Source of the DNA: Candidatus Saccharimonadia bacterium
Lineage (GTDB): Bacteria; Patescibacteriota; Saccharimonadia; Saccharimonadales; 2-12-FULL-41-12
NCBI GenBank assembly: GCA_963717365.1
Contig: OY970327.1
Location: 587,599 to 651,598 of the forward strand
Direction of reading: 5' to 3'
Length of the DNA: 64,000 nt
Program-made: the position numbers and the translations under genes
Shown here: positions 3,614 through 35,080 of the stretch, one piece after another
Position numbering within the stretch: position 1 is the stretch's first letter
Layout of the letters: every line of letters begins with the position of its first letter
Notes under the pieces: generated by a model
What the model was told of the DNA's origin: nothing
The model's input: only the letters and a program-made list of their open reading frames with translations
The model's database searches: none

Positions 3614-4297
3614 CTACTGCTCGTACCCTGAGTTAGCTTTATCGCTAATAATCTGGCCGTCTTTAATAGTTACCACACGCCGTTTCAATTTATTAACAAT
3701 TTCTTGGTTGTGCGTGGTAAGCAGGACGGTGGTGCCGTACTTATTGATTTTTTCGAGTACTTTAATTACATCCCAGGCATGCTTGGGATCTAAGTTGCCC
3801 GTGGGCTCATCGGCGATCAAGATTTTGGGTTGACGGATAACGGCACGGGCAATCGCAACACGCTGGCGCTCGCCACCAGATAATTCGCGTGGATAGCTTT
3901 TTTCTTTTCCTTTTAGGCCAACAATATTGAGCACCTTTGGTACAGTGTGCCTAATTTCCCGGTTACTCATACCTATAATTTCCAGGGCGAAGGCAACGTT
4001 CTCAAAAACGGTTTTATTCGGTAATAATTTAAAGTCCTGGAAAACTACGCCAATCCTACGGCGCAAGCGCGGCACGTCTTTGTCTTTAAGCCGTTCATAG
4101 TCAATACCGCCAATGATAATTTTGCCGCTGGTGGGCTTCTCTTCTCTGGTAAGCAACTTGAGTAAGGTTGATTTACCAGCACCACTCGGTCCTACCACTA
4201 TGACGAATTCTTTCGGTTCAATATGCAGGCTAATACGCTGCAGCGCCGCGTCTGAACGGCGCGCGTACGACTTTGATACCCTATCAAGCAAGATCAT
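3614..4297 (-). CDS. ftsE: Cell-division ATP-binding protein FtsE
   Basis: Walker A GPSGAGKST, ABC signature LSGGERQR and Walker B ILIADEPT. Adjacent to ftsX. Confidence 0.9.
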   Translation of the reverse strand: MILLDRVSKSYARRSDAALQRISLHIEPKEFVIVVGPSGAGKSTLLKLLTREEKPTSGKIIIGGIDYERLKDKDVPRLRRRIGVVFQDFKLLPNKTVFENVAFALEIIGMSNREIRHTVPKVLNIVGLKGKEKSYPRELSGGERQRVAIARAVIRQPKILIADEPTGNLDPKHAWDVIKVLEKINKYGTTVLLTTHNQEIVNKLKRRVVTIKDGQIISDKANSGYEQ

Positions 4298-6913: not shown

Positions 6914-9544
6914 TTATTTCCGCTTCTTTTTGCCGGGTTTAGCCTTTTTCTTGTTTTGACGCTGGGCTTTACGGGCTTTTTTACGTTTTTCAGTGGCTTT
7001 TTTAGCTTCCGCTTTTTCCACTACTTCTGTCTTAACTTTAAAGTCTTCTTCGTTAAAATCAGCCGAATCAATAATTTTATCGGCATTATCAACCGATGAC
7101 CTGGCGGCACGGGTTAATTCAGTTTCAATTGCCTGGTTAAGCTGTGACTCGTCAATTGGGCGGGCGTGGAACAATGACTTCACAACATCATGACGAAGAG
7201 CGCGCTGCATTTGTTCAAAAATGCGCTGCGACTGGCGGCGGTATTCAACCAATGGATCGCGCTGGCCAACACCTACCCAACGGATACCTTCACGCAAGTG
7301 GTCCATAGTTTCCAGGTGCTGCATCCAGTAGTTATCCAAGGTTTGTAGGTAGATATCACGCTCAATTTTACGCAGAATCTCAGAGCCAAACCGCTTTTCC
7401 TGTTCGGTGTAGAGTTTTTCAGCAGCTTTAGTAAGTTCTTTTTCAAAACTATGGGCTGGCGAATCAAATAATCTATCTAGTGTTTTTTCGTCAAAGGGAA
7501 AGACATGCGTAAGCATATGTTCATATCTGTCAGACGTAGCATGCGGCGAATTAGCCAGATCTTTGGCTTCAGAACGAATAAATTCTCCGACTCGTTTGCT
7601 AATATCGGCCTGACGCAGAATCTCGTTGCGCATACTGTAGGTAGCTTTACGATGGCGGTTCATGACATCGTCATATTTAACTACATCTTTACGGGCATCA
7701 TAGTTAAAGCCTTCGACTTTCTTTTGGGAACCTTCCAGGCTTTTGCTAATAAAGCGGTTTTCGATTGGAGTCTCATCGTCAACTTTAAGTCGGTCCATTA
7801 CTTTGATGATGCGTTCACCACCGAATATACGCATCAGGTCGTCTTCACAGCTTACAAAGAACTGAGTAGTACCCGGGTCGCCCTGACGGCCGGACCGTCC
7901 CCTCAGTTGATTGTCGATACGGCGTGACTCGTGGCGCTCGCTGCCTAGCACAAACAGACCGCCGGCCTTTTTAGCATCTTTGTCTAGCACAATATCGGTA
8001 CCGCGGCCGGCAATGTTTGTGGCTAGCGTAATGGCGCCTTTTTGGCCAGCTTTAGCAATAATAGCTGCTTCTTTTTCGTTGTTTTTAGCATTCAAGATTT
8101 GATGTTTTATGCCGGCTTTTTTAAGAAGTGCGCTTAGTCGTTCATTTTTTCCGATTGAAGCACTACCAATCAGTATCGGCTGGCCTTTTTTATTTAGTTT
8201 CTTAACTTCTTTAATAATAGAGTTGAATTTGCCGGCTTCGGTTTTGTATATACGGTCTGGGCGGTCATGGCGCGCTAGCTTGCGATTTGGTGGAATCTCG
8301 ATGACATCAAGCTTATAAACCTGGTGGAACTCCTCGGCTTCAGTTGTTGCCGTTCCGGTCATACCCGACAATTTGTTATATAAACGAAAATAATTCTGGA
8401 AACTAATGGTAGCTAAGGTCATCGACTCATCCTGGATTTCAACGGCTTCCTGCGCTTCTATTGCCTGGTGCAATCCTTCGTTGTAGCGGCGGCCTTTAAG
8501 CAAACGTCCGGTGAATTCATCAACAATGACTACTTCCCCGTCTTTAGTAACAACGTAATCTTTGTCGCGCTTAAATAAAGCTCGTGCCTTCAAGGCTTGC
8601 TCCAGATGATAGAGCGTTCGAATGTTATCTGAAGCATACAGATTAGTAATTCCCAAAATTTTCTCAATCTGATCAATACCCTCATCGGTCAAAGTAGCGG
8701 CTTTGCGTTTTTCATCGACTTCGTAATGCTCATCTTTTTTAAGTTGACGGACAACCTTAGCAAACTGCAGGTAGGCGGTACCGCTGGCTGTTGATGGAGC
8801 AGAAATAATTAGCGGGGTGCGAGCTTCATCTACTAAAATCGAATCAACCTCGTCAACAATAGCAAAGTTAAGTTCGCGCTGACGCAGCTGCTCAACTTCG
8901 CGAACCATATTGTCACGCAGATAATCAAAGCCGTATTCATTATTAGTGCCATAGGTAATATCGGCGTTATAGGCTTCTTGCCGGGTGCTGGGGCGAAGCC
9001 GCTTCATACGCGGATCTTCGTGGTCATCATTTTTATAATTAGGGTCATATAAGAATGACTTTTCTGCGATTACCACACCAGTGCTCAGCCCAAGGAAGTA
9101 ATAGATTTCACCCATCCAACTGGCATCACGTTGGGCGAGATAATCGTTTACCGTGACCACGTGGACACCTTTTTCTTCTAAGGCATTTAAGTAGACCGGT
9201 AGTGTTGCTACCTGGGTTTTACCCTCACCTGTTTTCATTTCGGCTATAGAGCCGTCGTGAAGCGCCATGCCACCAATTAACTGGACATCATAGTGGCGTT
9301 GTTTTAAGGTACGAGCTGCAGTTTCTCGTACAATTGCAAAAGCATCTGGCAACAACTTATTAAGCGACTCTTTTTTGAGTCGTTTTTTTAGTTCCTCGGT
9401 TTGCTTCTTTAATTGCGCATCAGACATTTTCTTATATTTGTCTTCTAGCTTATTAATAGCACCGACACGCCTGGTTAATTTCTTAAGCATGCGTGCCTGA
9501 GGATCCCCAAGGACACGTTTTACTATCTTTTTATTCACCTTCAT
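6914..9544 (-). CDS. secA: Preprotein translocase ATPase SecA
   Basis: 876 aa with Walker A MKTGEGKT and the DEVDS box, alignable by eye to SecA throughout. The C-terminal tail is Lys-rich and has no Zn-finger cysteines. Confidence 0.95.
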   Translation of the reverse strand: MKVNKKIVKRVLGDPQARMLKKLTRRVGAINKLEDKYKKMSDAQLKKQTEELKKRLKKESLNKLLPDAFAIVRETAARTLKQRHYDVQLIGGMALHDGSIAEMKTGEGKTQVATLPVYLNALEEKGVHVVTVNDYLAQRDASWMGEIYYFLGLSTGVVIAEKSFLYDPNYKNDDHEDPRMKRLRPSTRQEAYNADITYGTNNEYGFDYLRDNMVREVEQLRQRELNFAIVDEVDSILVDEARTPLIISAPSTASGTAYLQFAKVVRQLKKDEHYEVDEKRKAATLTDEGIDQIEKILGITNLYASDNIRTLYHLEQALKARALFKRDKDYVVTKDGEVVIVDEFTGRLLKGRRYNEGLHQAIEAQEAVEIQDESMTLATISFQNYFRLYNKLSGMTGTATTEAEEFHQVYKLDVIEIPPNRKLARHDRPDRIYKTEAGKFNSIIKEVKKLNKKGQPILIGSASIGKNERLSALLKKAGIKHQILNAKNNEKEAAIIAKAGQKGAITLATNIAGRGTDIVLDKDAKKAGGLFVLGSERHESRRIDNQLRGRSGRQGDPGTTQFFVSCEDDLMRIFGGERIIKVMDRLKVDDETPIENRFISKSLEGSQKKVEGFNYDARKDVVKYDDVMNRHRKATYSMRNEILRQADISKRVGEFIRSEAKDLANSPHATSDRYEHMLTHVFPFDEKTLDRLFDSPAHSFEKELTKAAEKLYTEQEKRFGSEILRKIERDIYLQTLDNYWMQHLETMDHLREGIRWVGVGQRDPLVEYRRQSQRIFEQMQRALRHDVVKSLFHARPIDESQLNQAIETELTRAARSSVDNADKIIDSADFNEEDFKVKTEVVEKAEAKKATEKRKKARKAQRQNKKKAKPGKKKRK

Positions 9545-11533: not shown

Positions 11534-12316
11534 TTACTTCTTTTGGATATGTTTGAGAGTTAACTCCATGCGCGACCGAGCGTAAGCACAGAACTCGCAC
11601 TCACCGCCCATAATACTAACGCCCATCGGCGGCATAGTATCGTTGTCCATGCAGGCTTTCATTTTTACAATCGTTTTTTCTACCCAGGAGTCATTGCCGG
11701 TATATGGAATAACTTTGGTGCGGAACTCAATCCGATCGTTAAAACCGTCAAGATCAAGCCGGCCGTTGGTATAAACAAAATAGCCGGTATCGCTGACTTC
11801 AAAACCGTTCTGGCGCAATAACCACTGGTAAACCTCCATTTGGCGCTTATAGGTTATCTGCCATTCGGCGTCAAGATTAACTTCGGTGGCCTTGGCAGTT
11901 GCTTTATAGTCTACGACGATTAATTGACCATTGCTTGTAACCCAAACATCGTCAATCGCACCGAAAATATGCAGGTTGGTTGGTTCATGCAAAGCAACAA
12001 CGCCAGTAAAATTATGTCGCCAGTCATCAAGTTTTTCATGAGCGTATGGAATTGCATCAATGTTGTGTGCAGTCATCAATGGATGTGGTTCAGACTTTGT
12101 CCGATACACATCGAACTCCTTCTTAAAAAGTTCATCGATTGCTTTATTAATTTGAAACGGGGGGCCGTTAGGACGGGTAATTTTTAGACGTATATCAAGC
12201 CAAAAGCAGCGCTGGCACTGCGTAAACAGCTCAATTTTACTGCGACTGAGTTTGAAAGCCGTCTTTTGTCCCGGTTTGTATGGTTGGGATCGCTGCCGCC
12301 AATAACTATTTGCCAT
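11534..12316 (-). CDS. PD-(D/E)XK nuclease, Cas4/RecB-like, with Cys clusters
   Basis: 260 aa with IVVDYK (D-x-K) and cysteines at the N-terminus (CQRC) and C-terminus (C...CEFC), compatible with an Fe-S Cas4-like fold. No CRISPR or cas genes are nearby. Confidence 0.6.
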   Translation of the reverse strand: MANSYWRQRSQPYKPGQKTAFKLSRSKIELFTQCQRCFWLDIRLKITRPNGPPFQINKAIDELFKKEFDVYRTKSEPHPLMTAHNIDAIPYAHEKLDDWRHNFTGVVALHEPTNLHIFGAIDDVWVTSNGQLIVVDYKATAKATEVNLDAEWQITYKRQMEVYQWLLRQNGFEVSDTGYFVYTNGRLDLDGFNDRIEFRTKVIPYTGNDSWVEKTIVKMKACMDNDTMPPMGVSIMGGECEFCAYARSRMELTLKHIQKK

Positions 12317-12356: not shown

Positions 12357-13052
12357 TTAGCCTTCTAGCTGACGTCTTCTGTTTATTCTTTGTTCCTTCG
12401 GCAACTCATCGACTTTCTCTATGAGGTTAATTTGCATGGAAGTTAGGGTGTTAATTATTTCTAATAATTTATCAGGATTTAGGTCTTCGCAAGCATACTG
12501 AAGGCTGACTAAATCTTCGGGTAGAGGACGTTCCAATATTTTGTGTAAGTGGCTTACTTCATAAAGTATGTCGCGCAATTTCTGACGCCGTAATGGGCTA
12601 TCTAAACTTGCTACTAACTCTTTATATTGAGGGGTTAATTCATCGCTGGCCTGTCTGCCTTTTTCGGCTACCCGGGCATTAGTTATATTTACAGACCGGG
12701 GATTTCTCTGTACATGGATTTCAAGCAGGCCTTCCTCGGCACATAATTCAATTGCTGTTTTTGTAATCAGATTTTCTAAATTGAGTGTTCGGGCAAAATC
12801 GGCAATAATGCCTTTTTTACGCTCTCTGGGATATAACCAGTCTTGGATATCATTACTTTTTGTTCTAACCAAATTTAATACTGCAAAACTGGCTACACTC
12901 ATGTGTACCGTATTATTATCACTCAATATATGTTCATTTATTTCAGTCACGTCCACATTTTCTGGTGCCAACGGACGCATTGGTTCAACAATAGTTAATC
13001 TATGGTAAGGGCGGGTGTATTCACTTTCCGAACGTAACGACTCTGGACTCAT
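12357..13052 (-). CDS. Hypothetical protein (possible winged-helix segment)
   Basis: 231-aa ORF. TATAGT lies 8 nt upstream of ATG 13052. No family recognised. Confidence 0.4.
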   Translation of the reverse strand: MSPESLRSESEYTRPYHRLTIVEPMRPLAPENVDVTEINEHILSDNNTVHMSVASFAVLNLVRTKSNDIQDWLYPRERKKGIIADFARTLNLENLITKTAIELCAEEGLLEIHVQRNPRSVNITNARVAEKGRQASDELTPQYKELVASLDSPLRRQKLRDILYEVSHLHKILERPLPEDLVSLQYACEDLNPDKLLEIINTLTSMQINLIEKVDELPKEQRINRRRQLEG

Positions 13053-13061
13053 TAATAAATA

Positions 13062-13754
13062 CTATAACATAATAATCGTACTTGCGGTGACTGCTGCTGT
13101 TTCAGCGCGTAAAGTAAAGTTGCTAACATGCAAGTGAGCTAGTTTTTGATCTTGAAAAAATTGCTTCTCAGCTTCACTCCAACCGCCTTCAGGACCGATA
13201 AAAATACCAGTCCGAGCGTCTTTAGAAATTTTTGGCGGTGACTTTGTTCCTTGCTCGCAAATAAAGAGTTGCGCCTTGTCATGATACTCAGTAAGAGCAG
13301 TTTGAACATGCATAGGCTCGCGGATTGATGGAATATTTGAACGGCCGCATTGTTCACTAGCTTCAATCACTATTTTACGCGCCCGCTCAGTATTAAAGTT
13401 GTCGCGAACCGACCGCTCAGCTAAAAGTGGCACGAAATTTGAAACACCCAGTTCGGTACATTTCTGTAAAATTAAATCGTTATTGTCTTTTTTAAGCAAA
13501 CTGAAAAAAAGGTAGACGTGTCGAGATGGTAACTGTCGATCCAATTCTGTCACCATTTGGAGATGTGCTTCAGTTTTATCAATTTTAACTAGATGATACA
13601 ATCGGTCAGTTTGTTTTCCGTCAAATAATATAACCTTTTGGCCCTCACGAAAACGGAGTACTCTGTTCCATTGCCAGAGTAACGACTCATCATGCAGCCA
13701 AAAGTCCTTTTTTAGTTGAAATTTATCTGCTATATAGAATCGGTGAATACGCAT
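13062..13754 (-). CDS. rsmE: 16S rRNA (uracil1498-N3)-methyltransferase RsmE
   Basis: N-terminus MRIHRFYI... and IFIGPEGGWSEAE motif. 230 aa. Confidence 0.8.
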   Translation of the reverse strand: MRIHRFYIADKFQLKKDFWLHDESLLWQWNRVLRFREGQKVILFDGKQTDRLYHLVKIDKTEAHLQMVTELDRQLPSRHVYLFFSLLKKDNNDLILQKCTELGVSNFVPLLAERSVRDNFNTERARKIVIEASEQCGRSNIPSIREPMHVQTALTEYHDKAQLFICEQGTKSPPKISKDARTGIFIGPEGGWSEAEKQFFQDQKLAHLHVSNFTLRAETAAVTASTIIML

Positions 13755-13795: not shown

Positions 13796-14986
13796 TCACT
13801 TATCAGGCGTCGAATTATTGATAACCACGCTTGGTTGGGCGGGCTTTGCCGGAGATGATACGTCAGTCGGTCCTACCATGGCGCCAGGAGCTAGGGTTGT
13901 GGTTGGAAAATTTCGTAATCGCTCTAAACGCTCTTCAAGAATTTTTGATTCTGTCGGGGGTGAAGCCGCTCCTGTAGTAGATATTGCTGGAGTAGAAAAT
14001 ATCGGGATATGATTTTTGGAGCGAGATGCTGCAAGTTGTGTCCACAACATTTTTGCACCCAAAAGCAACCCAGCAACTGCTACGAGACCGCCGGTTGCAA
14101 TTGCTACCTTGGAAATAGTACTTATGCCGGAAGAATCTTGAGATTTGTTGACACTTCCCTCCCCATTTGTGCTCACTGGCAATTCGTTAGTTGCATTTGC
14201 TGCTGGAACAGCAGGGGGCGAAGTAACCGGAGTCGTTCCCGGATCGATCGGAGAACCAGAAGAAACCTGACTGGTTGATTGCGACTGCTGATTCCGTCCT
14301 GTACCTGCTCCACCGTTTGATGGTGCTGTAGCGGCTGGAGCACCAGGACTCGTAGACGTAGCAGGCGCTCCAGGGTTAGAGCCTATAGGCGGTGCACTAG
14401 GACTTGATGCAGGTGCATTAATCGTATAAGTTACTCCGTTACTTTGGAGGGGTAAGTTACTGCCATCATCTTCGCTTGTAACATATGAACTTGCCATAAA
14501 ATTCAACTGGGCAGAACCGGTGTTAATTGCCTTAAAGCTAATGCGTGCGAACAGTTCGTCACCTCCAGGCACGGCCGGTGTTGCAGTCCGCTCTAGGTGC
14601 AATACGCCGCCGGTATTTGTTTCTTGTACTACAGTACTATAGGGAGAACTTGGTAAACTAACACTTTGGAATTCTATTTTGTCGGACACATAGTCCAGAT
14701 ATATTGACGCGCCTTTGACAGGAACGCCGGCAGCAGTATTAATTCGGATATCGACTTCAAACATTTCACCGGTATCAACCGATTGATTAATGCCAGGTGA
14801 AGTATAGAGCGTAGCCGTACCGATAGCTGCCGAGGAATGCATAATGATATAACTCATAGCCGCCGAGAAGAGCCCGGCGGCTATTATTACCGCAGGGACA
14901 ATGAAAGAAGTTGAAAGTACGTGTTGATACGTCGGTGTTTTTCTCCGTATTTTTTTTACTGGTTTTTGGGTTTTATGAACGGACAT
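13796..14986 (-). CDS. Membrane-anchored surface protein with a cohesin/Ig-like beta domain and a Pro/Ser/Thr-rich linker
   Basis: N-terminal TM, a ~150-aa beta-rich domain (EMFEVDIRINTAAGVPVKGASIYLDY...), about 90 aa of P/S/A/T low complexity, and a second TM (VAIATGGLVAVAGLLLGA). The domain call is by eye only. Confidence 0.45.
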   Translation of the reverse strand: MSVHKTQKPVKKIRRKTPTYQHVLSTSFIVPAVIIAAGLFSAAMSYIIMHSSAAIGTATLYTSPGINQSVDTGEMFEVDIRINTAAGVPVKGASIYLDYVSDKIEFQSVSLPSSPYSTVVQETNTGGVLHLERTATPAVPGGDELFARISFKAINTGSAQLNFMASSYVTSEDDGSNLPLQSNGVTYTINAPASSPSAPPIGSNPGAPATSTSPGAPAATAPSNGGAGTGRNQQSQSTSQVSSGSPIDPGTTPVTSPPAVPAANATNELPVSTNGEGSVNKSQDSSGISTISKVAIATGGLVAVAGLLLGAKMLWTQLAASRSKNHIPIFSTPAISTTGAASPPTESKILEERLERLRNFPTTTLAPGAMVGPTDVSSPAKPAQPSVVINNSTPDK

Positions 14987-15049: not shown

Positions 15050-15637
15050 TCAACTAAATAAGTGTCTGCGAAGAGTTAAGAACTTCAAAAATATTCCACC
15101 CAGATAGATATACAAGCCGAGCCCAATACACGCCACAAAAACTTTATATGTTTCCAGCCATGAATTAAATCCGCTCACAAATACCGTGCTTGCAATAGGC
15201 AGCGCTCCGACAAATAAACAAATTATCCACGCTACCAGGCCCATCAGCGCTACTGATCGCAAAATAAAATGGATTAAGATATAGCTTTTGTTTTGTTTAT
15301 ATACCTTGGCGTTCGCCAAATTTCTATGCGGCACATCACTTATATATAAATGCAATACACCCCGCAGAACGTCTACTATTATTATGCCGATAAAGGCTAC
15401 GACGAGCCAAAATATAAAAGTAGCGGCATCGGCAGTAATAACAGATAGCACATTTAATAAAAAGTCCCTAAATGACGGCAGCGTTTCAGTGCTAATATAT
15501 TCGGATCCGTTACTACCAAGCAATATTGACGTTACTTGCTTATAATTCAGCAGTATCAGTCCGGCAGCAGATAACACAAATAATAAGGTAAGTTCCAGCT
15601 TTCCGGGGATAAATGCTAATCTATCGGGTTGGTTCAT
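15050..15637 (-). CDS. Hypothetical polytopic membrane protein
   Basis: 195 aa with 4-5 hydrophobic helices. Confidence 0.4.
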   Translation of the reverse strand: MNQPDRLAFIPGKLELTLLFVLSAAGLILLNYKQVTSILLGSNGSEYISTETLPSFRDFLLNVLSVITADAATFIFWLVVAFIGIIIVDVLRGVLHLYISDVPHRNLANAKVYKQNKSYILIHFILRSVALMGLVAWIICLFVGALPIASTVFVSGFNSWLETYKVFVACIGLGLYIYLGGIFLKFLTLRRHLFS

Positions 15638-15716: not shown

Positions 15717-17009
15717 CTATTGATCGCTAAGTAAGGATTGGTTTTTAGGACTGAGAATAGCCAACGCTTCAATGTGTGGTGTGCGCGGAAAGAAATTATA
15801 GCCGTGAATTGATTCTATTGTGAAACTGCCCTGGAGTAACTCAAGGTCGCGCGCTAATGTGCCCGGATTACAACTAAGATAGATAATTTTGGGTGGTTTC
15901 ACGCTTATAATTCGATCGGTCAAATCACGGTGCAAACCAGCCCGCGGCGGGTCAACCACCAATGTATGTGACTCATCAACATACTCTAAGGCTCGTTCGC
16001 TGCTGGCATGAACTACCGTCGCTGTTCGTGGTGTACCGGTGTTTTTTTTAGCCCAGACAACGTTTGCCGCTTCACTTTCAACCAGCAAGTCAGTATGCGG
16101 CAACGATAATCCGATTGAGCCTACCCCACTATACAGGTCAATCACGGGGGTGTCGCCAGCTACCACTCTTATTTGGTCCAGCACAGTCTTAAATATACCT
16201 AAGTTGCCTTGGAAGAACGAAAAAACATCATAGCGTATATTTGTTTCTATCAGTGTTTCTCCAAGGGATATATCGCCAAATTTATAAAGATCTTGTGTTC
16301 TGACACTCGCTGGACTTTGCGGATTTGAATAGCATACAACCGTTCCTTGGCACAGACTATCGAGCTCTTTGAGCACCGGAAATTTCTGATCCCGGGTGAA
16401 TATTCCAACAACCGTATTGCCTGCGGCGTCACAACGAATAACTGCACTTTTAATATCGCCAGCTCTGATTTTTTTCTTATTTAATAAGTCAGCTAATTTG
16501 TTAGCCACGGCATCTATTTCTGGTCGGGCTATACTGCTACCGGTCACAATCTGCTTGCCATGTGTACCACGATTAAATAAAGCAAGGTGTAAGCCTTCAT
16601 CATCGCCGTAGAACGAGTACTCCATTTTATTTCGATAGTGCCATTGTTCATCTGGTGCTTCGAATGGCAATTTTCCGTCGTATACTACGCCAGCACGCTG
16701 TAAGGTTTCGAGTAAAATTTCTTGCTTGTAACGATTTTCAGCCACGTAGCTCATCATCTGCCATGGACTTGTACTCAAATAGAGTTCATCACGCGGCACT
16801 TCCCGCTCAGCCGATGGCTTTAGAATTTCATCGGCAACACCCTCCACTAGCGAACTTTTAGCTTTGCGTGTGGTAAAGCGAACCGTTTCACTAGGCAGAA
16901 CATTCCACACCAGCGCTTTCTTCCCATTGGGCAAACTACCTAAACCTTGTCCTCCATGAACCAGCTTATCGATTAGAATTTCATGAATTTGGGGCTTAAA
17001 TTTAGACAT
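15717..17009 (-). CDS. 23S rRNA (uracil-C5)-methyltransferase, RlmD/RumA family
   Basis: N-terminal TRAM-like segment and SAM-MTase motifs DLYSGVGSIGL, VVDPPRAG and YLSCNPGTLARD. Confidence 0.75.
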   Translation of the reverse strand: MSKFKPQIHEILIDKLVHGGQGLGSLPNGKKALVWNVLPSETVRFTTRKAKSSLVEGVADEILKPSAEREVPRDELYLSTSPWQMMSYVAENRYKQEILLETLQRAGVVYDGKLPFEAPDEQWHYRNKMEYSFYGDDEGLHLALFNRGTHGKQIVTGSSIARPEIDAVANKLADLLNKKKIRAGDIKSAVIRCDAAGNTVVGIFTRDQKFPVLKELDSLCQGTVVCYSNPQSPASVRTQDLYKFGDISLGETLIETNIRYDVFSFFQGNLGIFKTVLDQIRVVAGDTPVIDLYSGVGSIGLSLPHTDLLVESEAANVVWAKKNTGTPRTATVVHASSERALEYVDESHTLVVDPPRAGLHRDLTDRIISVKPPKIIYLSCNPGTLARDLELLQGSFTIESIHGYNFFPRTPHIEALAILSPKNQSLLSDQ

Positions 17010-17036: not shown

Positions 17037-17981
17037 TTACTTAAGCGCAATTACGACGATCAAAACAACTGCAAACTTAGTAAACAGATCAATCCGTAGG
17101 TATCGTTCTTCAGCACGGAGATAATCGCCCGCTCTACCCACTCGCAGTTGGCGATATTGAGTAATCGCAAAGCCGATAAAACCAAGCAGCAGTACACCAG
17201 CCACCGCATACACATGCCAACCAAATCGCTCCATGCCGTATAAGCTAGTACCGATGAAGCTACCGATCAGCGGTAGCCATGCCATCGCACCGGTAATTAA
17301 GCTCAGTGTATATGCAAACCATTTTGGACGGGCAGTACCGATGTTTTCACGTTCGGCTATAAAACTCAGCATTGTGGTAATAAAAATTAAGAATGCTGAT
17401 AGTTTTAATGTTGCAAGATCATCTATTCCACCGATTAGGTTAGCAAAGTTCAGTAGTAAGGCAGCGGAGATACCAAAAGCTAACCATCGTAGACCGGAGG
17501 TACGATTAGCAAGCGTAGCTTCATAGCGACTACGTAGTTTTGTTGCTAGTAAAATCAGAATAAGTGAGCTTGCGAGTAATGATGCCGCAAGTACATATTT
17601 TGGATCGAGATTAAAGAGCACTTCACTGGCTGGTCCAAGCACGACAGTGCTATCACTGGCAAATTGATCACGAGTCTGTAGACCAAGCCGTACAGCCACT
17701 TCTGTGGTTGTGACGAAGCCAATTACCAGCGCAGCAAAAATTAGATTGACCATGGCCGAGCTAACAAGCAGACTTCGGATACGGTCTAACGGAGTTAGCG
17801 GGCTGCGTGTTGTTGCCTTTACGGTACTTACGCTTGTTTGTGTGATTAGTGGTTTTTTGACAGCTGTTTTTCGCGGAGCGGCGACAGCTTTTTGGTTAGT
17901 TATTTTCTTGGTAGTTTTTACTGCCTTTGCAGGCTTTTTGGTAGTTGTACGTGTCGATTTCGACTGAGTTGTTGTTGCCAT
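17037..17981 (-). CDS. Heliorhodopsin-like seven-transmembrane protein with a basic N-terminal extension
   Basis: 314 aa with seven predicted TM helices after a ~60-aa K/T/A-rich tail. By-eye similarity to heliorhodopsin 48C12, recalled from memory: RYEATLANRTSGLRWLAFGIS versus RYSASLMKNQNIFRWVEYSLS, GGIDDLATL versus CGIADIVALL, and YLRAEERYLRIDLFTKFAVV versus YLRGERAYIVLSLVAKSALA. The TM7 Lys is codon 302 (17078..17076). Confidence 0.55.
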   Translation of the reverse strand: MATTTQSKSTRTTTKKPAKAVKTTKKITNQKAVAAPRKTAVKKPLITQTSVSTVKATTRSPLTPLDRIRSLLVSSAMVNLIFAALVIGFVTTTEVAVRLGLQTRDQFASDSTVVLGPASEVLFNLDPKYVLAASLLASSLILILLATKLRSRYEATLANRTSGLRWLAFGISAALLLNFANLIGGIDDLATLKLSAFLIFITTMLSFIAERENIGTARPKWFAYTLSLITGAMAWLPLIGSFIGTSLYGMERFGWHVYAVAGVLLLGFIGFAITQYRQLRVGRAGDYLRAEERYLRIDLFTKFAVVLIVVIALK

Positions 17982-17988
17982 AGCTCAC

Positions 17989-17997
17989 ACTATACCA
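17989..17997 (-). promoter_or_regulatory. Extended -10 promoter giving a leaderless transcript of the heliorhodopsin-like gene
   Basis: TGGTATAGT (17997->17989), then 7 nt, then ATG 17981. No SD. Confidence 0.45.
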
Positions 17998-18236
17998 TAC
18001 CTGTGATTCCTCGGTAACTTGGACGCCCTCGATAGATCAAAACCTACCCACCTTCTACCTATGCAAAATGACAAGGTATCCTGGAAGTTGGTTAGCTGCA
18101 ACAATAACTTTTTCAAGGAAAAATAAAGACTATTTCTGTTTCTTTAGATAGTCGATTAGCTGCCCAAAGTAGTGAGCCCCTTGCGGGACAAGTTTGGCTG
18201 GGTCTATAGACCTGCCATGGCTTTAAATCTGGCATG

Positions 18237-19757
18237 TTACAAATCCAAGCCGGGATAAATTTTACGGGTAGTCTCGTCAACTTCGGCCCGCAGCTGTGGG
18301 AATGGCACACCTTCGCGGGCAGTGACGCCTTCTAGCATCCAGAAAATACGTTCGCTGTGGCCGTAGCCACAGGCTGGCGGCATGCCATATTCCAACATTT
18401 CTACAAAGTCAATATCCAGCATCATGGCTTCGGCATCACCGGCGTCGCGCAGCTGTTGCTGTTCAGTAAAGCGACTTAATTGGTCAAGCGGATCATTGAG
18501 CTCGCTGTAGGCTTTGCAGGCTTCGGTGCCGCCGATTAACAGGTTAAATTGCTCACTCAAACGTGAGTCGGCGGCTTGCGTCTTAGCAAGCGGCTGCAAA
18601 AAGGTCGGTACATCAACTAGGAACGCCGGTCCGGCGATTTCTACTCGAATTTTCTTCCATAGTTTATCGATACAGCGATTAATATTGTCAGCCTTTTCTA
18701 CATCGATGCCGTTGGTTTTGACGGCCGCCTGTACGTCTTCCAGGCTGGTGTTAAACACGTCAATGCTATAGCGGTCTTTAATAATGCCGATAAAGCTAAC
18801 CTCGGGCCAGTCTTGATCATCCGGTCCAAGATCAACCTGTTGTCCATTCATAAGAGTAAACTGCCGGGTTCCCCAAGTTTTGTCAGCAATATGGCGGATG
18901 AATCGCTGTGTTAGCTGCATGCCGTCGCGCCAGTCGGCGTACGCCCAGTACCATTCTAAAGCAATGTGTTCGGGCAGATGTTCATCGGAATAATTTTCGT
19001 TGCGGAAACGCGGGCCAATGTCGAACACTTTTTCGTAACCGCCGCCCAGCAAGCGCTTGAGCGGCAGTTCGTGGCTGATACGCAAATAGAAATCCTGATC
19101 TAAAGCATCCATGTGCGTCACAAACGGATTAGCATCGGCGCCGCCGGCAATACCTTCTAAAACAGGGATATTTATCTCTATAAAGCCTTCGTTAATTAGA
19201 AATTCGCGGGCGGCTTGCCAAAAGTTGCTGCGGCGAATGTAGCGCTGGTACACGTTTTTGTTCACATTTGTGTCCACATAGCGGCGGCGCAGACGTTCTT
19301 CTTTGTTAGTAAAGCCATCTTGTTCGGTTGGCAGCGGCCGGAGCGATTTGGTAAGCAATTTAAGCGTTTGCACTTCGATTGAAATTTCGCCGGTCTGAGT
19401 TTTGATGACCGGACCGCTCGCTTCAATAAAATCGCCACTATCCAGAAGTTGTAGGTGTTCTATGCCAATTAGATTTTCGGCGCCATTTGTTTCTGTCGTA
19501 ACACCATTTTTAAGAAATAGCTGAACACTGCCGGACGCATCTTTTAGTACAATGAAAGCAATTTTGCCAAACTTACGAATACTGGTGATACGGCCGGTTT
19601 GCGTAGCGGTTTGCCCTTGCAGCGAATCAAAGTCAGTTGTAATCTGAGCAGCGGTGTGGGTACGACCAGCTTTAGCCGGATATGGGTTAACGCCAAGTTT
19701 TTTTAAATCTTCGAGTTTGCGCAGCCGTTCATCGCGGAGTTCGTGTATTGTTGCCAT
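18237..19757 (-). CDS. lysS: Lysyl-tRNA synthetase, class II
   Basis: 506 aa with an OB anticodon-binding N-domain and a class II core (FRNE, GGTE..AYSELNDP). TATACT lies 8 nt upstream of the ATG. Confidence 0.95.
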   Translation of the reverse strand: MATIHELRDERLRKLEDLKKLGVNPYPAKAGRTHTAAQITTDFDSLQGQTATQTGRITSIRKFGKIAFIVLKDASGSVQLFLKNGVTTETNGAENLIGIEHLQLLDSGDFIEASGPVIKTQTGEISIEVQTLKLLTKSLRPLPTEQDGFTNKEERLRRRYVDTNVNKNVYQRYIRRSNFWQAAREFLINEGFIEINIPVLEGIAGGADANPFVTHMDALDQDFYLRISHELPLKRLLGGGYEKVFDIGPRFRNENYSDEHLPEHIALEWYWAYADWRDGMQLTQRFIRHIADKTWGTRQFTLMNGQQVDLGPDDQDWPEVSFIGIIKDRYSIDVFNTSLEDVQAAVKTNGIDVEKADNINRCIDKLWKKIRVEIAGPAFLVDVPTFLQPLAKTQAADSRLSEQFNLLIGGTEACKAYSELNDPLDQLSRFTEQQQLRDAGDAEAMMLDIDFVEMLEYGMPPACGYGHSERIFWMLEGVTAREGVPFPQLRAEVDETTRKIYPGLDL

Positions 19758-22682: not shown

Positions 22683-23942
22683 TTAATTCGTTAATTGCTG
22701 AATAATATCATTCGTATTGATCAGCTGAGTTTCATCCGACATACGAGCCTTTAGCTCAACGGCGGATTGTTCGAGAGTCTTTTTACTAACCACCACGCGG
22801 TGCGGTGTTCCTAGTAAATCAGCGTCGGCAAATTTTTCGCCGGCGCGCAGGTCTCGGTCGTCATAGATTACACTAATTTTGGCTTTTGCAAAAGACTCAA
22901 ATAGATCTTCTGTGGCCTTAACTACTGCTGGATCGTCACCGAGCCCGATTAAATGCACCCGAGCCGGTGCAACCGCCTCTGGCCAAACCAGACCTTTTTC
23001 ATCAGAAAATTTCTCGGCGATAACGCCAATTAGCCGCGTAATGCCAATACCATACGAGCCGAGGTGGACGTACTGTTTCTCTCCATTTTCGCTGGTAAAG
23101 GCAAAATCGGTTTGCTCGCTTTTACCAGTTCCAAAGTTAAAAATATTGCCAACCTCAGCACTCTTAACTTGCTCCAGTTCATCCCGGGCAATGCCGAGAC
23201 TGGCTAAATTTTCATCGGTCATGACTTCTTCATTCACCGCAATATTCTTGCCGCGATGCAGATAAATGACATCTTCGCCGGCTTCGCAGACCGTTTGGAA
23301 TTCATGGCTAAAATCAGTAAAGGCACCACCACTGGCAAAGGTAACATAAGTATCGTCACCCAGACCAAGTCGCTGGTAGACCTTCTTGTAACTTTCGATT
23401 GTCCGATCATAAAACTCATCATGCTGGGCGGCATTAATACTGCAGGAATACATGTCTTTCATGACAAATTCGCGTCCGCGCATAACACCGCTTTTAGCGC
23501 GCAGTTCGTTTCTAAGCTTGGTTTGGAACTGATAGACAGTGGCTGGTAAGTCTTTATAGCTGGTAATGTGCTGTTTCATCATTTCGATGATTGCCTCTTC
23601 GTGCGACCAAGCCAATCCCAGCTCTGTATTGTCTTTTAGTTTAGTCTTAAACCAAATATCAACCGTTTCATCATCCCAACGGCCAGTAATTTCCCATGTT
23701 TCGGGACGCTGCAGGCTGCTCATTATTAATTCCTGGCCGCCGAGGGCATTCATTTCTTCTCTAACAATCTGTTTGATGTTTTCAAGCACCCGCAGGCCAA
23801 GCGGTGTGTAGGCGTAAACGCCAGCCATGACCTTGTAAACAAAGCCAGCCTGAATCAGCAGCTGAGCATTACGGGCTGTTTCGTCAGCTGGGGCGGTTTT
23901 GCTGGTTTTGGTAAAAAGTTGCGATAGTCGGTAGGTATTCAT
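22683..23942 (-). CDS. proS: Prolyl-tRNA synthetase, short bacterial type without the INS editing domain
   Basis: 419 aa with a bacterial-type N-terminus and class II motifs (FRNELR, GRGREF-like, GSYGIG) and a C-terminal anticodon-binding domain. There is no ~180-aa insertion between motifs 2 and 3. Confidence 0.9.
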   Translation of the reverse strand: MNTYRLSQLFTKTSKTAPADETARNAQLLIQAGFVYKVMAGVYAYTPLGLRVLENIKQIVREEMNALGGQELIMSSLQRPETWEITGRWDDETVDIWFKTKLKDNTELGLAWSHEEAIIEMMKQHITSYKDLPATVYQFQTKLRNELRAKSGVMRGREFVMKDMYSCSINAAQHDEFYDRTIESYKKVYQRLGLGDDTYVTFASGGAFTDFSHEFQTVCEAGEDVIYLHRGKNIAVNEEVMTDENLASLGIARDELEQVKSAEVGNIFNFGTGKSEQTDFAFTSENGEKQYVHLGSYGIGITRLIGVIAEKFSDEKGLVWPEAVAPARVHLIGLGDDPAVVKATEDLFESFAKAKISVIYDDRDLRAGEKFADADLLGTPHRVVVSKKTLEQSAVELKARMSDETQLINTNDIIQQLTN

Positions 23943-24917: not shown

Positions 24918-25745
24918 TTAGGCCAAGTGAAAGACAAAAAGTGATAAGAAGGCCAGGCCATTTTTAAGACCATGAACAACCATCCCCGACCATAGGCTGC
25001 CTGTTTTTTCACGGAGTCCAATTAGGAATATAGAAAGCACAAACGTATCGATAGCGGCAACGTAGAGCGGCAAAGCCCCGCTAAATAACTGGAGGTGAGC
25101 GATACCAAACACAAGACTTGCGATTAAAGCGGCTATTATTTTTCCCAGTTTTCGTCGCAAACCACTGTACAAAAAACCTCGAATCATTATTTCTTCTACG
25201 ATAGGCGGCACTATCACTAAGGTAATAAAAACCATTGCTAGAGAAAGTTGTCCGCTTACCGACTCAAATGGAAGTTGTTGCGGCTGATCAAGGTCAACAC
25301 TTGGAATTGTGCGGTCTACCCCCTGCATTACAAATGCCAAGACAATAAAATAGATTATCGTGCATAGTATGGCAAAGCCGACGTCGCTTAGTTTAGGGCC
25401 GCGTCCCAGACCAATATCGGGAAGTGAGATATTGCGACGTCGCATAAACCAAAAGATAACGGCCAGTCCCGCTAGTTGAGAGAAAATAATTAAAATAAAT
25501 GTAGCCGGAACGGAAGCTTCTAACGCCTTTGTAAAATCAGTTGCGTCCCTACCACTTAGCTGGAGATATATACCGATCCCTAACGCTAACACGATCTGTG
25601 GAGCAAGAAATGCTAGTACTGTAACTACTATGGCTGGAATGGGGCCGAAAAAGCCGGCCGATTTATCGGCAGGCACCTCTGACTTTTCTTGGCTGTCTAA
25701 CGAGTCGTGTAGACGAGTACTAGAAGAATCTTTTAACATCGACAA
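24918..25745 (-). CDS. CPBP-family intramembrane glutamic endopeptidase (CAAX protease-like)
   Basis: Polytopic membrane protein with EEIMIRG (EExxxR), FGIAH (FxxxH) and HGLKN motifs. Confidence 0.7.
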   Translation of the reverse strand: MSMLKDSSSTRLHDSLDSQEKSEVPADKSAGFFGPIPAIVVTVLAFLAPQIVLALGIGIYLQLSGRDATDFTKALEASVPATFILIIFSQLAGLAVIFWFMRRRNISLPDIGLGRGPKLSDVGFAILCTIIYFIVLAFVMQGVDRTIPSVDLDQPQQLPFESVSGQLSLAMVFITLVIVPPIVEEIMIRGFLYSGLRRKLGKIIAALIASLVFGIAHLQLFSGALPLYVAAIDTFVLSIFLIGLREKTGSLWSGMVVHGLKNGLAFLSLFVFHLA

Positions 25746-26823
25746 TAGTGATTAGCACAAATAAACCCATCAATGCCACAAAACCAGTGCCATGAATAGC
25801 TTCTTCGCGGCTTTTTGTAAGCGGTTTCTTTAGCGCCCGGAATAAAAGCAGTACAAAAAGCCGGCCGCCATCAAGTGCCGGAATAGGCAGTACGTTCATA
25901 ATAGCCAGCGACAGTGACAAAATAGCAATTATAAATAGCACAAAATTGATGCCGATCTTACTGCCCTCTTTAAGAATGACAGCGATGCCTACCGGCCCAG
26001 ATACCTGTTGGCTGGCAGTTTTGGTATCTCCTTTAAATAAACTATTGATTGCAGTGCCTAAGCCTTTAAAAGTCAATTGTGTTAGCTGGCCGGTTAGTCC
26101 AACCGCTACTACTGGTGCCGACCAAGTGCTTTTTTGTAATTGTATTCCTTCGCGGCCGGGCACGATGCCCACCAGGCCATTACCAGTATTTTCCTGGTTC
26201 ACTGGCACCATTACCTCACGCTGCTGGCCATCACGAATAATTGTAAACGGAATTGTTTTACCCCTATTATCACGAGCGATTGAGCCAATCTGGGCAGTGT
26301 CACTGAGCCGTGTGCCATTAATGGCTACAATTTTGTCACCATTTTGGATGCCGGCACGAGCAGCCGGCTGAGTACCGTCTACTTCGGCAGCCAAAATGGT
26401 GACCTCGCGGGTGACCTTAGTATCGCTAGCAACTGTGAACTGGTTAGCAATAATCTTTGGCATACCCATCAGCGCCAGAAGTGTAAACAAAGCCACGGCC
26501 ACAACAAGGTTCATGACTACGCCAGCGAGCATTATCTTTACTTTGGTACTAAGTGAAGCAGAACCAAAGGTACCAGGCTTAGTGGCGGCATCATTTTCGC
26601 CTTTAAGACGCACAAAACCACCAAGCGGCAATGCATTTATCGAAAATAAGAAGGTACTTTTTTTAGTTTTAACCTTGCGGCCCCAAACTTTTGGCGGAAA
26701 GCCGATGCCAAATTCATCTACCTCTACTCCGCCGCGGCGGGCAGCAATAAAATGGCCCCACTCATGTACTACTACCAGGCCAATAAACAAAATTGCGCCC
26801 AAAATCAAAAGAAAGACTGACAT
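25720..26823 (-). CDS. rseP: Site-2 (RIP) zinc metalloprotease RseP, M50 family
   Basis: HEWGHF (HExxH) in TM1, a central PDZ-like segment, and NVLPIPALDGG near the C-terminus. Confidence 0.8.
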   Translation of the reverse strand: MSVFLLILGAILFIGLVVVHEWGHFIAARRGGVEVDEFGIGFPPKVWGRKVKTKKSTFLFSINALPLGGFVRLKGENDAATKPGTFGSASLSTKVKIMLAGVVMNLVVAVALFTLLALMGMPKIIANQFTVASDTKVTREVTILAAEVDGTQPAARAGIQNGDKIVAINGTRLSDTAQIGSIARDNRGKTIPFTIIRDGQQREVMVPVNQENTGNGLVGIVPGREGIQLQKSTWSAPVVAVGLTGQLTQLTFKGLGTAINSLFKGDTKTASQQVSGPVGIAVILKEGSKIGINFVLFIIAILSLSLAIMNVLPIPALDGGRLFVLLLFRALKKPLTKSREEAIHGTGFVALMGLFVLITIVDVKRFF

Positions 26824-30479: not shown

Positions 30480-30821
30480 ATGAAAAAAGATATCCACCCA
30501 AAGAACTACCGTCCTGTCGTGTTTCAGGACTTGTCTAACGGCACCTCATTTCTTATGATGTCCACTGCTCCCACAGACGAAAAGATCAAGCACGACGACG
30601 GCAAAGAGTATCCGCTGGTTAAGGTACACATTAGCAGCGCCTCACACCCCTTCTTCACCGGCCAGGAGAAACTAGTCGACATCGAAGGCCGTGTTGACAA
30701 GTTCAAAGCCCGCACCGAAGCTGCCGCCAAAAAGCGCGAAGAAGCCTCGGCTCGCACTAAAAAAGCCCGCAAAGAACAAGACGCGCCGACCAAACTGGCC
30801 GACGCTAAAACTACTAAGTAA
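30480..30821 (+). CDS. rpmE: 50S ribosomal protein L31, type B (no Zn-binding Cys), with a Lys/Ala-rich C-terminal extension
   Basis: [10 protein letters not shown]...[29 protein letters not shown] (30466-30471) lies 8 nt upstream of the ATG. Confidence 0.85.
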
Positions 30822-33808: not shown

Positions 33809-35080
33809 TTAGTTTTGAGGCGCAGCTTCAAGTATTACGTCGAGTGGCTGCTCTTTTTTGTCACGGATGATAGTAAGCGTAACTTTATCTCCTACGGGGT
33901 GACGGCCGAGCAGTGATATTAGGCTATTTGTTTCGTTAATGGCATCATTTCCAACTTTTGTAATGATATCACCTTCTTGCAAGCCAGCTTTAGAAGCAGG
34001 ACTATTTGGGATAATCGATGGAGGTTGTCCGGGTTCAGTAGGTGCAATGTAGGCACCGCGTTTTGTTTCTAAATTATACTGAAAAGCCGCGTCGTCATTG
34101 AGTGTCACATAACGAACGCCAAGATACGGCCGAAGTAGCTTTCCGTCTTTGAGAACACTCGTAATAAGGCCTTTGACGTCATTAACCGGGATAGCAAATC
34201 CAACGTTCTGGGCGTCGCCGCCAGCGATAGCAGTGTTAATGCCAATCACTTCGCCGTCCAAATTAACAAGCGGGCCGCCGGAATTTCCTTCGTTAATTGC
34301 GGTATCTGTTTGGAATAAGTTTTGAAGTGATTCACTGCTGCCTATGCCACTGCTATCTCCAGCTTCGACGCTGCGGCCATAACCAGAAATAATCCCGGCC
34401 GTAACGGTATTTTGAAACTGGCCGAGCGCATTGCCAATAGCAATGGCATTTTGACCAACTTCCACCTTAGAAGAGTCACCGATTTTGGCCGCTTTAAGTT
34501 CTTTCCCTTTTTTGTCAGTTATCTTAAGGAAGGCGACATCGAGCGTGTCGTTGTCGTTGGTGCGGCCAATAACCTCTACATTTTCAAGTTCGGTTCCATC
34601 GGACAAAGTAACGTTAACTGACGTGGCACCGGCAGGAATTACGTGCCGGTTAGTGATAATCGTACCGTTGGTATCAATAATAATACCTGTGCCAGCGCTT
34701 CGCTGCTCAATTGCCCGGTTACCGAAGGAGGTTGCACGAACGGCTTGGCTGGTAACATTAATTGATACTACGCTTGGGCCAACCTCTTTGACTAGTTGGA
34801 TAATCCGGGCACTTTCATCAGTTACTGTTTGCCGTTCTGAACCTCCTGAAAGGCCACCGGTGTCGTTGGCTCGGTCACCAAAATACCCACCTAGAAAACC
34901 AAAAGTAGTACTAAAAATTAGCAATAACGTTATAGCCATGACTCGCTGCTTGCCGCTGCTGTCAGCTACTGCGTGCTGTTGTTGCGGCTCATTTCCGGCA
35001 GGCCATAACGGTGGCAAAGAAGCAGTTTCTGGATCCTTTGTATCGTTTGCTGTCTGATTATTTGCTGGATCTGTGTTCAT
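33809..35080 (-). CDS. htrA: HtrA/DegP-family serine protease with PDZ domain
   Basis: N-terminal TM, trypsin-like catalytic motifs (TNRHV, GNSGGPL) and a C-terminal PDZ. Confidence 0.85.
   Translation of the reverse strand: MNTDPANNQTANDTKDPETASLPPLWPAGNEPQQQHAVADSSGKQRVMAITLLLIFSTTFGFLGGYFGDRANDTGGLSGGSERQTVTDESARIIQLVKEVGPSVVSINVTSQAVRATSFGNRAIEQRSAGTGIIIDTNGTIITNRHVIPAGATSVNVTLSDGTELENVEVIGRTNDNDTLDVAFLKITDKKGKELKAAKIGDSSKVEVGQNAIAIGNALGQFQNTVTAGIISGYGRSVEAGDSSGIGSSESLQNLFQTDTAINEGNSGGPLVNLDGEVIGINTAIAGGDAQNVGFAIPVNDVKGLITSVLKDGKLLRPYLGVRYVTLNDDAAFQYNLETKRGAYIAPTEPGQPPSIIPNSPASKAGLQEGDIITKVGNDAINETNSLISLLGRHPVGDKVTLTIIRDKKEQPLDVILEAAPQN

Follow-up and report, generated by a model that had tools for sequence, protein, structure and literature searches.

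An earlier note on the DNA described here had described one of its genes as coding for a heliorhodopsin (HeR)-like protein in which the lysine of transmembrane helix 7 (TM7) is retained and the glutamate of TM3 is replaced. This raises the question of which residue could then serve as the counterion of a retinal Schiff base, and whether the protein is still a photoreceptor. The gene is located at 17037..17981 on the minus strand of a 64,000-nucleotide stretch of Candidatus Saccharimonadia bacterium DNA (assembly GCA_963717365.1, contig OY970327.1, positions 587,599 to 651,598; hereafter the window), and it encodes 314 residues and a stop codon. Its membership in the HeR family is based on the open reading frame (ORF), on Pfam PF18761 and on an AlphaFold2 (AF2) model compared with the TaHeR and 48C12 crystal structures. 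The function of HeRs has been debated since 2018, and to our knowledge all HeRs studied so far rely on the Glu of helix 3 and on a His/water cavity. The answer that we favour, with moderate confidence, is that the product is a retinal-scavenging sensory HeR whose sole counterion is Asp298 on helix 7, whose polar cavity has been dismantled, and whose polycationic cytoplasmic tail is common to the whole family.

The profile search proposed in the earlier note places residues 69-308 in the Pfam family Heliorhodopsin (PF18761) with 86 bits (E = 3.2e-24, profile positions 2-236 of 242), compared to a gathering threshold of 26.7 bits. No Pfam match to the type-1 family Bac_rhodopsin was obtained even at E<=10, and a phmmer search of the PDB sequences returned TaHeR at 2e-15 and 48C12 at 4e-8. 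In the AF2 model, which was built on 54 homologues and has a mean predicted local distance difference test (pLDDT) score of 85.6, the helices comprise residues 64-89, 127-146, 163-183, 189-212, 222-248, 255-284 and 287-313, and the β-strands 95-104 and 115-125 form the extracellular AB-loop hairpin typical of HeRs. The top Foldseek matches of this model are TaHeR (6IS6; TMt 0.88, root-mean-square deviation (rmsd) 2.0 Å) and 48C12 (6SU3; TMt 0.81-0.82), with type-1 rhodopsins far lower (TMt ~0.5-0.7, rmsd 5-10 Å); the identity to the solved HeRs is 18-24%. The seven hydrophobic helices noted earlier are found in the superposed model. In addition, 28 Lys and Arg residues (13 without the tail) lie on the cytoplasmic side and 4 outside, and these charge counts fit, in silico, the inverted HeR topology with a cytoplasmic N-terminus. 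As judged from the model, the product is a true membrane protein of the heliorhodopsin fold, whose N-terminus is cytoplasmic and whose seven helices are accompanied by a β-hairpin on the extracellular side. Compared with 48C12 (6SU3/6UH3) and TaHeR (6IS6), it shares the Pfam family, the fold, the AB β-hairpin, the N-in topology, the TM7 Lys and the lateral fenestration, but it differs in the replacements E107->A and S237->D, in the other cavity changes and in a basic tail of 60 residues.

The start codon is unambiguous because an in-frame TGA stands two codons 5' of the ATG. On the minus strand, residues 1-63 (17793..17981; composition, pLDDT 45-69) form the disordered, polycationic, K/T/A-rich N-terminal tail, which is predicted to be cytoplasmic, and residues 64-314 (17040..17792; AF2, Foldseek) form the seven-helix core with the AB-loop β-hairpin. 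Two antisense ORFs, 17233..17526 and 17704..17967 on the plus strand, were taken as spurious, as they lie wholly within the conserved HeR reading frame.

Three alignments (a phmmer pairwise alignment, one by MAFFT-auto and one of 193 sequences by MAFFT L-INS-i) were made against the 48C12 reference sequence, which was verified as identical to PDB 9LJJ/6SU3. All three agree that K302 (codon 17076..17078, minus strand), the Schiff-base lysine by homology, corresponds to K241 of 48C12; that A168 (codon 17478..17480, minus strand), a non-acidic residue, occupies the canonical counterion position E107; that D298 (codon 17088..17090, minus strand), four residues before the Lys, corresponds to S237 of 48C12 and D212 of bacteriorhodopsin (bR) and is the proposed relocated counterion; and that L142 (codon 17556..17558, minus strand) takes the place of the cavity residue H80. 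MAFFT L-INS-i places N79 (codon 17745-17747, minus strand) at H23. The conserved Lys, the Ala at the TM3 site and the Asp at K-4, all of which had been read from the earlier alignment, are therefore in place, their codon and residue numbers were exact, and the two cavity His residues that had not been evident are indeed gone. As far as sequence can decide, every checkable claim made earlier on the identity of the HeR and its site residues is supported.

The L-INS-i alignment shows further changes from 48C12, namely N16->L72, N101->S162, Y108->F169, P172->A234 and W246->L. The TM7 motif is D298-L-F-T-K302 instead of the canonical SxxxK (S237), the RW-x-E-Y motif lacks its TM3 Glu/Asp counterion at A168, and the polar Schiff-base cavity N16, H23, H80, N101 and Y108 reads L72, N79, L142, S162 and F169. 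On the other hand, S76, Y92, R104, W105, S111, E149, W173, F206, Q213, Q216, Y226 and E230 of 48C12 are all kept. Among them, S76 and S111 correspond to S138 and S172, and the cytoplasmic cluster R104/W105/E149/Y226/E230 is found as R165, W166, E210, Y287 and E291, each residue being 82-100% conserved in all relatives. Four of the five fenestration residues listed in bioRxiv 10.1101/2025.11.27.691015 are also kept (Y224, G231, F268 and A272). D298 is the only conserved intramembrane acid apart from E210 and E291. A misaligned counterion was considered and rejected: the alignments agree, they are anchored by the invariant R165-W166 (positions -3/-2 relative to 107) and by the E-x2-Y motif before TM7, and the three positions on either side of residue 168 hold no acid. 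Since the sites are bracketed by these invariant motifs, misalignment is not credible. In 48C12, the Schiff base is hydrogen bonded directly to E107 and S237; S237 and E107 stand where bR has D212 and D85, respectively, and both are treated as conserved in the family except for variation in "a few subfamilies" (Kovalev et al. 2020, PMC7049168). An Asp at position 237 would thus be placed to contact the Schiff base.

The comparison of relatives indicates that this arrangement is not peculiar to one protein. A search of 5.8 billion proteins yielded 54 close relatives, and an exhaustive search of representatives added 150 more distant ones. The close relatives (41-86% identity) all carry a basic tail, and D298 and K302 are conserved in at least 90% of them, with position 168 variable. 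Among the 193 aligned sequences, 154 bear the Lys; in 48C12 numbering, 75 of these combine a non-acidic residue 107 with Asp/Glu at 237, and 68 combine Asp/Glu at 107 with Ser/Asn/Gly at 237, while both acids occur in only 2 and neither in 9. The acids at 107 and 237 are almost mutually exclusive, which favours a relocated counterion, as the earlier note had suggested, over a chance substitution. When a neighbour-joining (NJ) tree was built without the three diagnostic columns (107, 237 and 241), the window HeR fell in a block of 72 sequences, 70 of which have the residue triad xDK at these columns. This answers the question raised earlier of whether the two replacements together define a clade: about 70 sequences do so, the block being recovered exactly in 69/100 bootstraps with a mean best overlap of 0.99, and up to four small xDK lineages stand elsewhere in the tree. 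Within the 72-sequence block, the Lys is present in 70 and the Asp in 69; of the 70 TM7-acid sequences of the clade, 69 have Asp and one has Glu. Residue 107 is hypervariable in the clade and never acidic (A20, I10, L10, V9, Y8, F6; also S/G/T). Two members deviate, P0020 (triad ADM), which has lost the Lys and kept the Asp, and P0014 (triad LGK), which has lost the Asp and kept the Lys; these may be recent inactivations or sequencing errors.

Based on these results, a mechanism may be proposed. All-trans retinal would most likely still be bound at K302, and it would enter from outside through the retained lateral opening, scavenging being suggested because the genes scanned give no sign of retinal synthesis in the cell. 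The ORFs of at least 100 aa in the window were scanned with Pfam (a truncated ORF at the left edge lay outside the scan); each is a housekeeping gene or lacks a Pfam match, and no blh, CCD, crt or second rhodopsin gene is among them, in agreement with the earlier statement that the window holds no gene for retinal biosynthesis. Type-1 rhodopsins of Saccharibacteria are known to load exogenous retinal (PMC9296517). Once the chromophore is loaded, the Schiff-base counterion would be Asp298, one helix turn before the Lys at the type-1 Asp212 position, rather than the helix-3 Glu. With N16, H23, H80, N101, E107 and Y108 replaced by L, N, L, S, A and F, the polar, water-filled cavity would no longer be available; hence, light-driven deprotonation may deliver the proton to Asp298 and not to a His/water cluster. 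A non-transporting signalling or regulatory photoreceptor would be expected, because the extracellular half is not spanned by any conserved polar path, and its output may pass through the invariant cytoplasmic cluster R165/W166/E210/Y287/E291. Finally, the disordered polycationic tail of about 60 residues could act as an electrostatic tether to a polyanion such as nucleic acid, the ribosome or acidic lipids.

The tail contains 15 K+R, no D/E and many Thr in residues 1-63, and its residues 1-60 are disordered in the AF2 model (pLDDT about 50), which agrees with the K/T/A-rich basic segment reported earlier and, by the charge counts, with its cytoplasmic placement. Tails of at least 40 aa are found in 63/75 TM7-acid, 47/68 TM3-acid and 26/39 Lys-less relatives, with an identical composition across the three classes (K24 T19 A15 S11 V8 P5 %; net charge +15 to +19). 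The tail is therefore not specific to the relocated-counterion variant; it is common to all orthologue classes of Saccharibacteria HeRs, including those without the Lys, and the conservation of its composition even in the latter argues for a tail function that is independent of light. No DNA tandem repeat underlies it. The tail alone gave no Pfam or PDB match at E<=10, so the description "histone-like" holds for composition and not for homology. Bacterial nucleoid proteins and histone H1 carry Lys/Ala/Pro-rich basic tails, and the HeR tail resembles these in its disorder, its strong positive charge and its lack of acidic and aromatic residues, but it is Thr-rich (~19-24%), has a lower Lys density (17-24%), sits on a membrane protein and has no detectable homology to them. 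Only two other strongly basic low-complexity stretches were observed in the window: the C-terminus of SecA (6914-9544), which is very Lys-rich (20 K+R in 40 aa) and comparably basic, and a segment near residue 463 of a 575-aa PP2C-domain protein (58101-59828).

A different view is suggested by relatives that have lost the chromophore lysine. The TM7 Lys is absent in 39 of the 193 aligned sequences (39/191 when counted as relatives), which carry R/L/A/V/T/Q at this position (e.g., P0140, P0200, P0168 and P0161), and these sequences keep the basic tail (median 56 aa, K+R 17) and the R104/W105/E149/E230 cluster. Their genomic position is also informative. A contig scan found five genome loci with relatives, all in metagenome-assembled genomes of Candidatus Saccharimonadales/Saccharibacteria; the window protein itself, in identical form, stands on a contig of 1.19 Mb. 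Along the compared loci (L001-L008), the conserved order is M50 protease, Rce1-like protein, aminoacyl-tRNA synthetase, greA, lysS, variable small ORFs and HeR, followed by the uracil-5 (U5) methyltransferase, an rsmE-like gene, PD-(D/E)XK, serS, S30AE and secA. The Lys-less HeR P0140 (triad GTL; L007 6001-6918 and L008 6001-6918) and the TM3-acid HeR P0094 (triad DNK) occupy the same lysS-methyltransferase slot as the window gene; accordingly, the Lys-less forms are orthologues rather than stray paralogues. Canonical, relocated-counterion and Lys-less types are all found in this slot, all with the same K/T/A/S-rich tail, and since DNK, xDK and GTL types share it, these positional orthologues have diversified at the chromophore site.

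These observations would suit a retinal-independent scaffold, in which the protein would, for example, anchor the tail and the cytoplasmic R/E/E/Y cluster at the membrane and K302-D298 would be a structural intramembrane salt bridge. Besides the retention of the tail and of R104/W105/E149 in the 39 relatives without the Lys and the identical slot of P0140, the lack of retinal genes among the scanned ORFs is in line with it, as is the position of the gene in a housekeeping string, probably co-transcribed with an RNA methyltransferase gene. However, the Lys (70/72) and Asp (69/72) are nearly invariant in the clade, and the fenestration and pocket residues are kept. Furthermore, positions 107, 237 and the pocket drift where the Lys is lost (entropies 2.3-3.0), as expected if the Lys-bearing members are under chromophore constraint. 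In the Lys-bearing groups, the pocket varies less than the rest of the protein (entropies of 1.41 against 1.75 and of 1.98 against 2.18, a lower value meaning higher conservation), while in the Lys-less orthologues it does not (2.30 against 2.25). On balance, a scaffold is considered unlikely for the window HeR, though it is the main rival.

Several points weigh against a retinal-binding HeR with a relocated counterion. The Lys has been lost many times in positional orthologues (~24 events on the NJ tree) with the tail and cytoplasmic cluster kept, so retinal may be dispensable for whatever function the family conserves. The covariation of 107 and 237 is dominated by one large clade, which implies few independent swap events. 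The pocket residue list is in part provisional and the entropies differ only modestly, which makes this line of evidence weak. In addition, the score against the NCBIfam HeR equivalog NF038020 is 84.8 bits, under its cutoff of 100, which explains why a close homologue carries the NCBI name "hypothetical protein". A broader form of the light-independent view may be drawn from the same data, namely that the syntenic Saccharibacteria HeR is mainly a light-independent platform whose conserved polycationic tail ties nucleic acid, ribosomes or a different polyanion to the membrane of these ultra-small cells, with retinal as an optional regulatory add-on that has repeatedly been rewired (in the TM7-Asp clade) or discarded (in the Lys-less lineages). 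We regard this as speculative and rather improbable; if it were true, the xDK clade would be a natural HeR in which a type-1-like Schiff-base chemistry controls the tether.

A third possibility is that the protein handles ions, either by binding an anion beside the Schiff base or by transporting protons or other ions in the manner of the viral V2HeR3. Chloride pumps and anion channels combine a neutral residue at the D85/E107 position with an Asp at the D212 position, and E107A/Q mutants of 48C12 are reported to bind anions; the side chain of A168 is small, and both S138 and S172 are kept. Proton transport by some HeRs is shown by V2HeR3 (PMC9448325). Nevertheless, over half of the clade members have a large hydrophobic side chain (I/L/V/F/Y) at residue 107. 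A conserved anion site could not be reconciled with this and was rejected on this ground. D298 already provides a negative charge, and the extracellular half has no conserved polar or charged residues, N178 and N181 not being conserved. Ion handling is therefore thought very unlikely. An annotation or alignment artefact, with a Glu really at the counterion site or an untranslated tail and a true start at Met77, finds some room in the low complexity of the tail and the low identity to solved HeRs, but it is scarcely believable given the agreement of the alignments around R165-W166, the MATTTK N-terminus and LTPLERIRS junction conserved across orthologues, the conserved promoter 7 nt before the ATG, the upstream in-frame stop, and the fact that in the AF2 model a start at Met77, which was rejected, would remove half of TM1.

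The promoter itself is an extended -10 element, TGgTATAGT (17989..17997, minus strand; sequence and locus comparison), which ends 7 nt before the HeR ATG and is preceded across a 17-nt spacer by a weak -35-like TTACCG (18012-18017, minus strand; sequence). It was found by eye and by locus comparison, and a simple sigma-70 scan missed it because the -35 element is weak. There is no Shine-Dalgarno (SD) sequence before the ATG. The same layout, TGnTATAGT-N6/7-ATG, occurs in L001, L002, L006 and L007; L003 has TATCAT with 6 nt before the ATG, L005 has a 10-nt gap, and L004 has a leader with GGAG before the ATG. The leaderless start proposed for this gene is thus supported by a layout conserved in orthologues. 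The accompanying claim that the gene is a monocistron does not stand: the next gene on the same strand, a tRNA/rRNA uracil-5 methyltransferase gene (15717..17009, minus strand; Pfam PF05958) that is probably co-transcribed, starts 27 nt after the HeR stop; its ATG is preceded by neither a -10 box nor an SD, and the gap contains no terminator-like site. This neighbour is conserved in L001-L004 and L006, at a distance of -1 to 18 nt in L001-L004, and the HeR gene probably opens an operon.

At least 10 other window genes also have a TATAAT-like box 6-9 nt ahead of the start codon, in many cases with a TG upstream of the box, and no SD (e.g., 3614-4297, 11534-12316, 12357-13052, 13062-13754, 15050-15637, 22683-23942, 25720-26823, 30480-30821 and 33809-35080), and an SD-like motif is present at 24/57 gene starts in the window. 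Leaderless starts are hence a habit of this genome and not special to the HeR gene. The conserved MATTT(K) start of the protein is encoded by the CA-rich run ATG GCA ACA ACA ACT (17979-17965; orthologous starts in L001-L003). Downstream CA repeats enhance the translation of leaderless mRNAs in E. coli, and the conserved peptide start may partly reflect a constraint at the mRNA level.

Upstream lies lysS, encoding a class II lysyl-tRNA synthetase (18237..19757, minus strand; Pfam tRNA-synt_2), which is syntenic in L001-L004 and L006-L008; in L005, an unmatched 510-aa ORF takes this place, and the HeR is an xDK protein of 36% identity with a short tail. As reported earlier, an untranslated spacer of 255 nt (17982..18236, minus strand) separates the lysS stop at 18237 from the HeR gene, and neither the spacer nor the gene has an Rfam match. 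In other genomes, this spacer is a variable spot with one to four small ORFs, such as NTP_transf_9 (L001 836-2755, L003 4704-5818, L004 5444-5932 and L006 5307-5970). Two lineage-specific ORFs separate the U5 methyltransferase from the rsmE-like gene: 13796-14986 and 15050-15637, a 396-aa ORF with a weak cohesin-domain match and a 195-aa hydrophobic ORF without a Pfam match, neither of which occurs there in L002 or L004. A functional link of the HeR to lysS or the methyltransferase was rejected; a reduced genome accounts for this gene order, which demonstrates orthology rather than a common function.

Among the closest known systems are the Saccharimonadia and candidate phyla radiation (CPR) HeRs, of the same phylum and family. 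Chiriac et al. 2022 (PMC9166423) counted 80 HeRs in Saccharimonadia, with SLVAK, SLIAK and SFVAK as common TM7 motifs, and Bulzu et al. 2021 (PMC8612252) described a cluster dominated by Patescibacteria (CPR), C17, and unexplained N-terminal extensions. Neither paper describes a DxxxK clade, the loss of the TM3 acid, a shared polycationic tail or a fixed lysS-HeR-methyltransferase slot, and no description of a DxxxK/neutral-107 clade or of Lys-less CPR HeR orthologues was found in the full-text literature, most subscription papers lying outside its scope. The EF loop motif GTSLYGxERFGWHVYA (residues 244-258, codons ~17208-17252) is highly conserved in CPR HeRs, with T245, G249, W255 and Y258 at 82-97%, and is unlike 48C12; in sequence terms, this hints at a conserved extracellular site. 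The window HeR shares with type-1 rhodopsins the helix-7 DxxxK (bR D212-x3-K216), with the Asp one turn before the Lys, and with halorhodopsin and anion channels a neutral residue at the helix-3 counterion (D85) position, but it has no sequence or Pfam relation to type-1 proteins beyond the superfamily, the opposite topology and a weak fold match to them; the DxxxK likeness is a convergence of one site and not membership. The many Lys-less positional orthologues recall the Rh-noK rhodopsin homologues, whereas the window HeR itself keeps the Lys and an acidic partner.

Proteins of the relocated-counterion type are currently annotated as hypothetical. A natural, conserved clade without the HeR cavity and with the proposed counterion at the Asp212 position provides a ready-made test of what the cavity is for. 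In addition, canonical, relocated-counterion and Lys-less versions that share one slot and one tail could separate the light-dependent from the light-independent roles of HeRs, and this series of three could show how retinal-auxotrophic episymbionts use host-derived chromophores.

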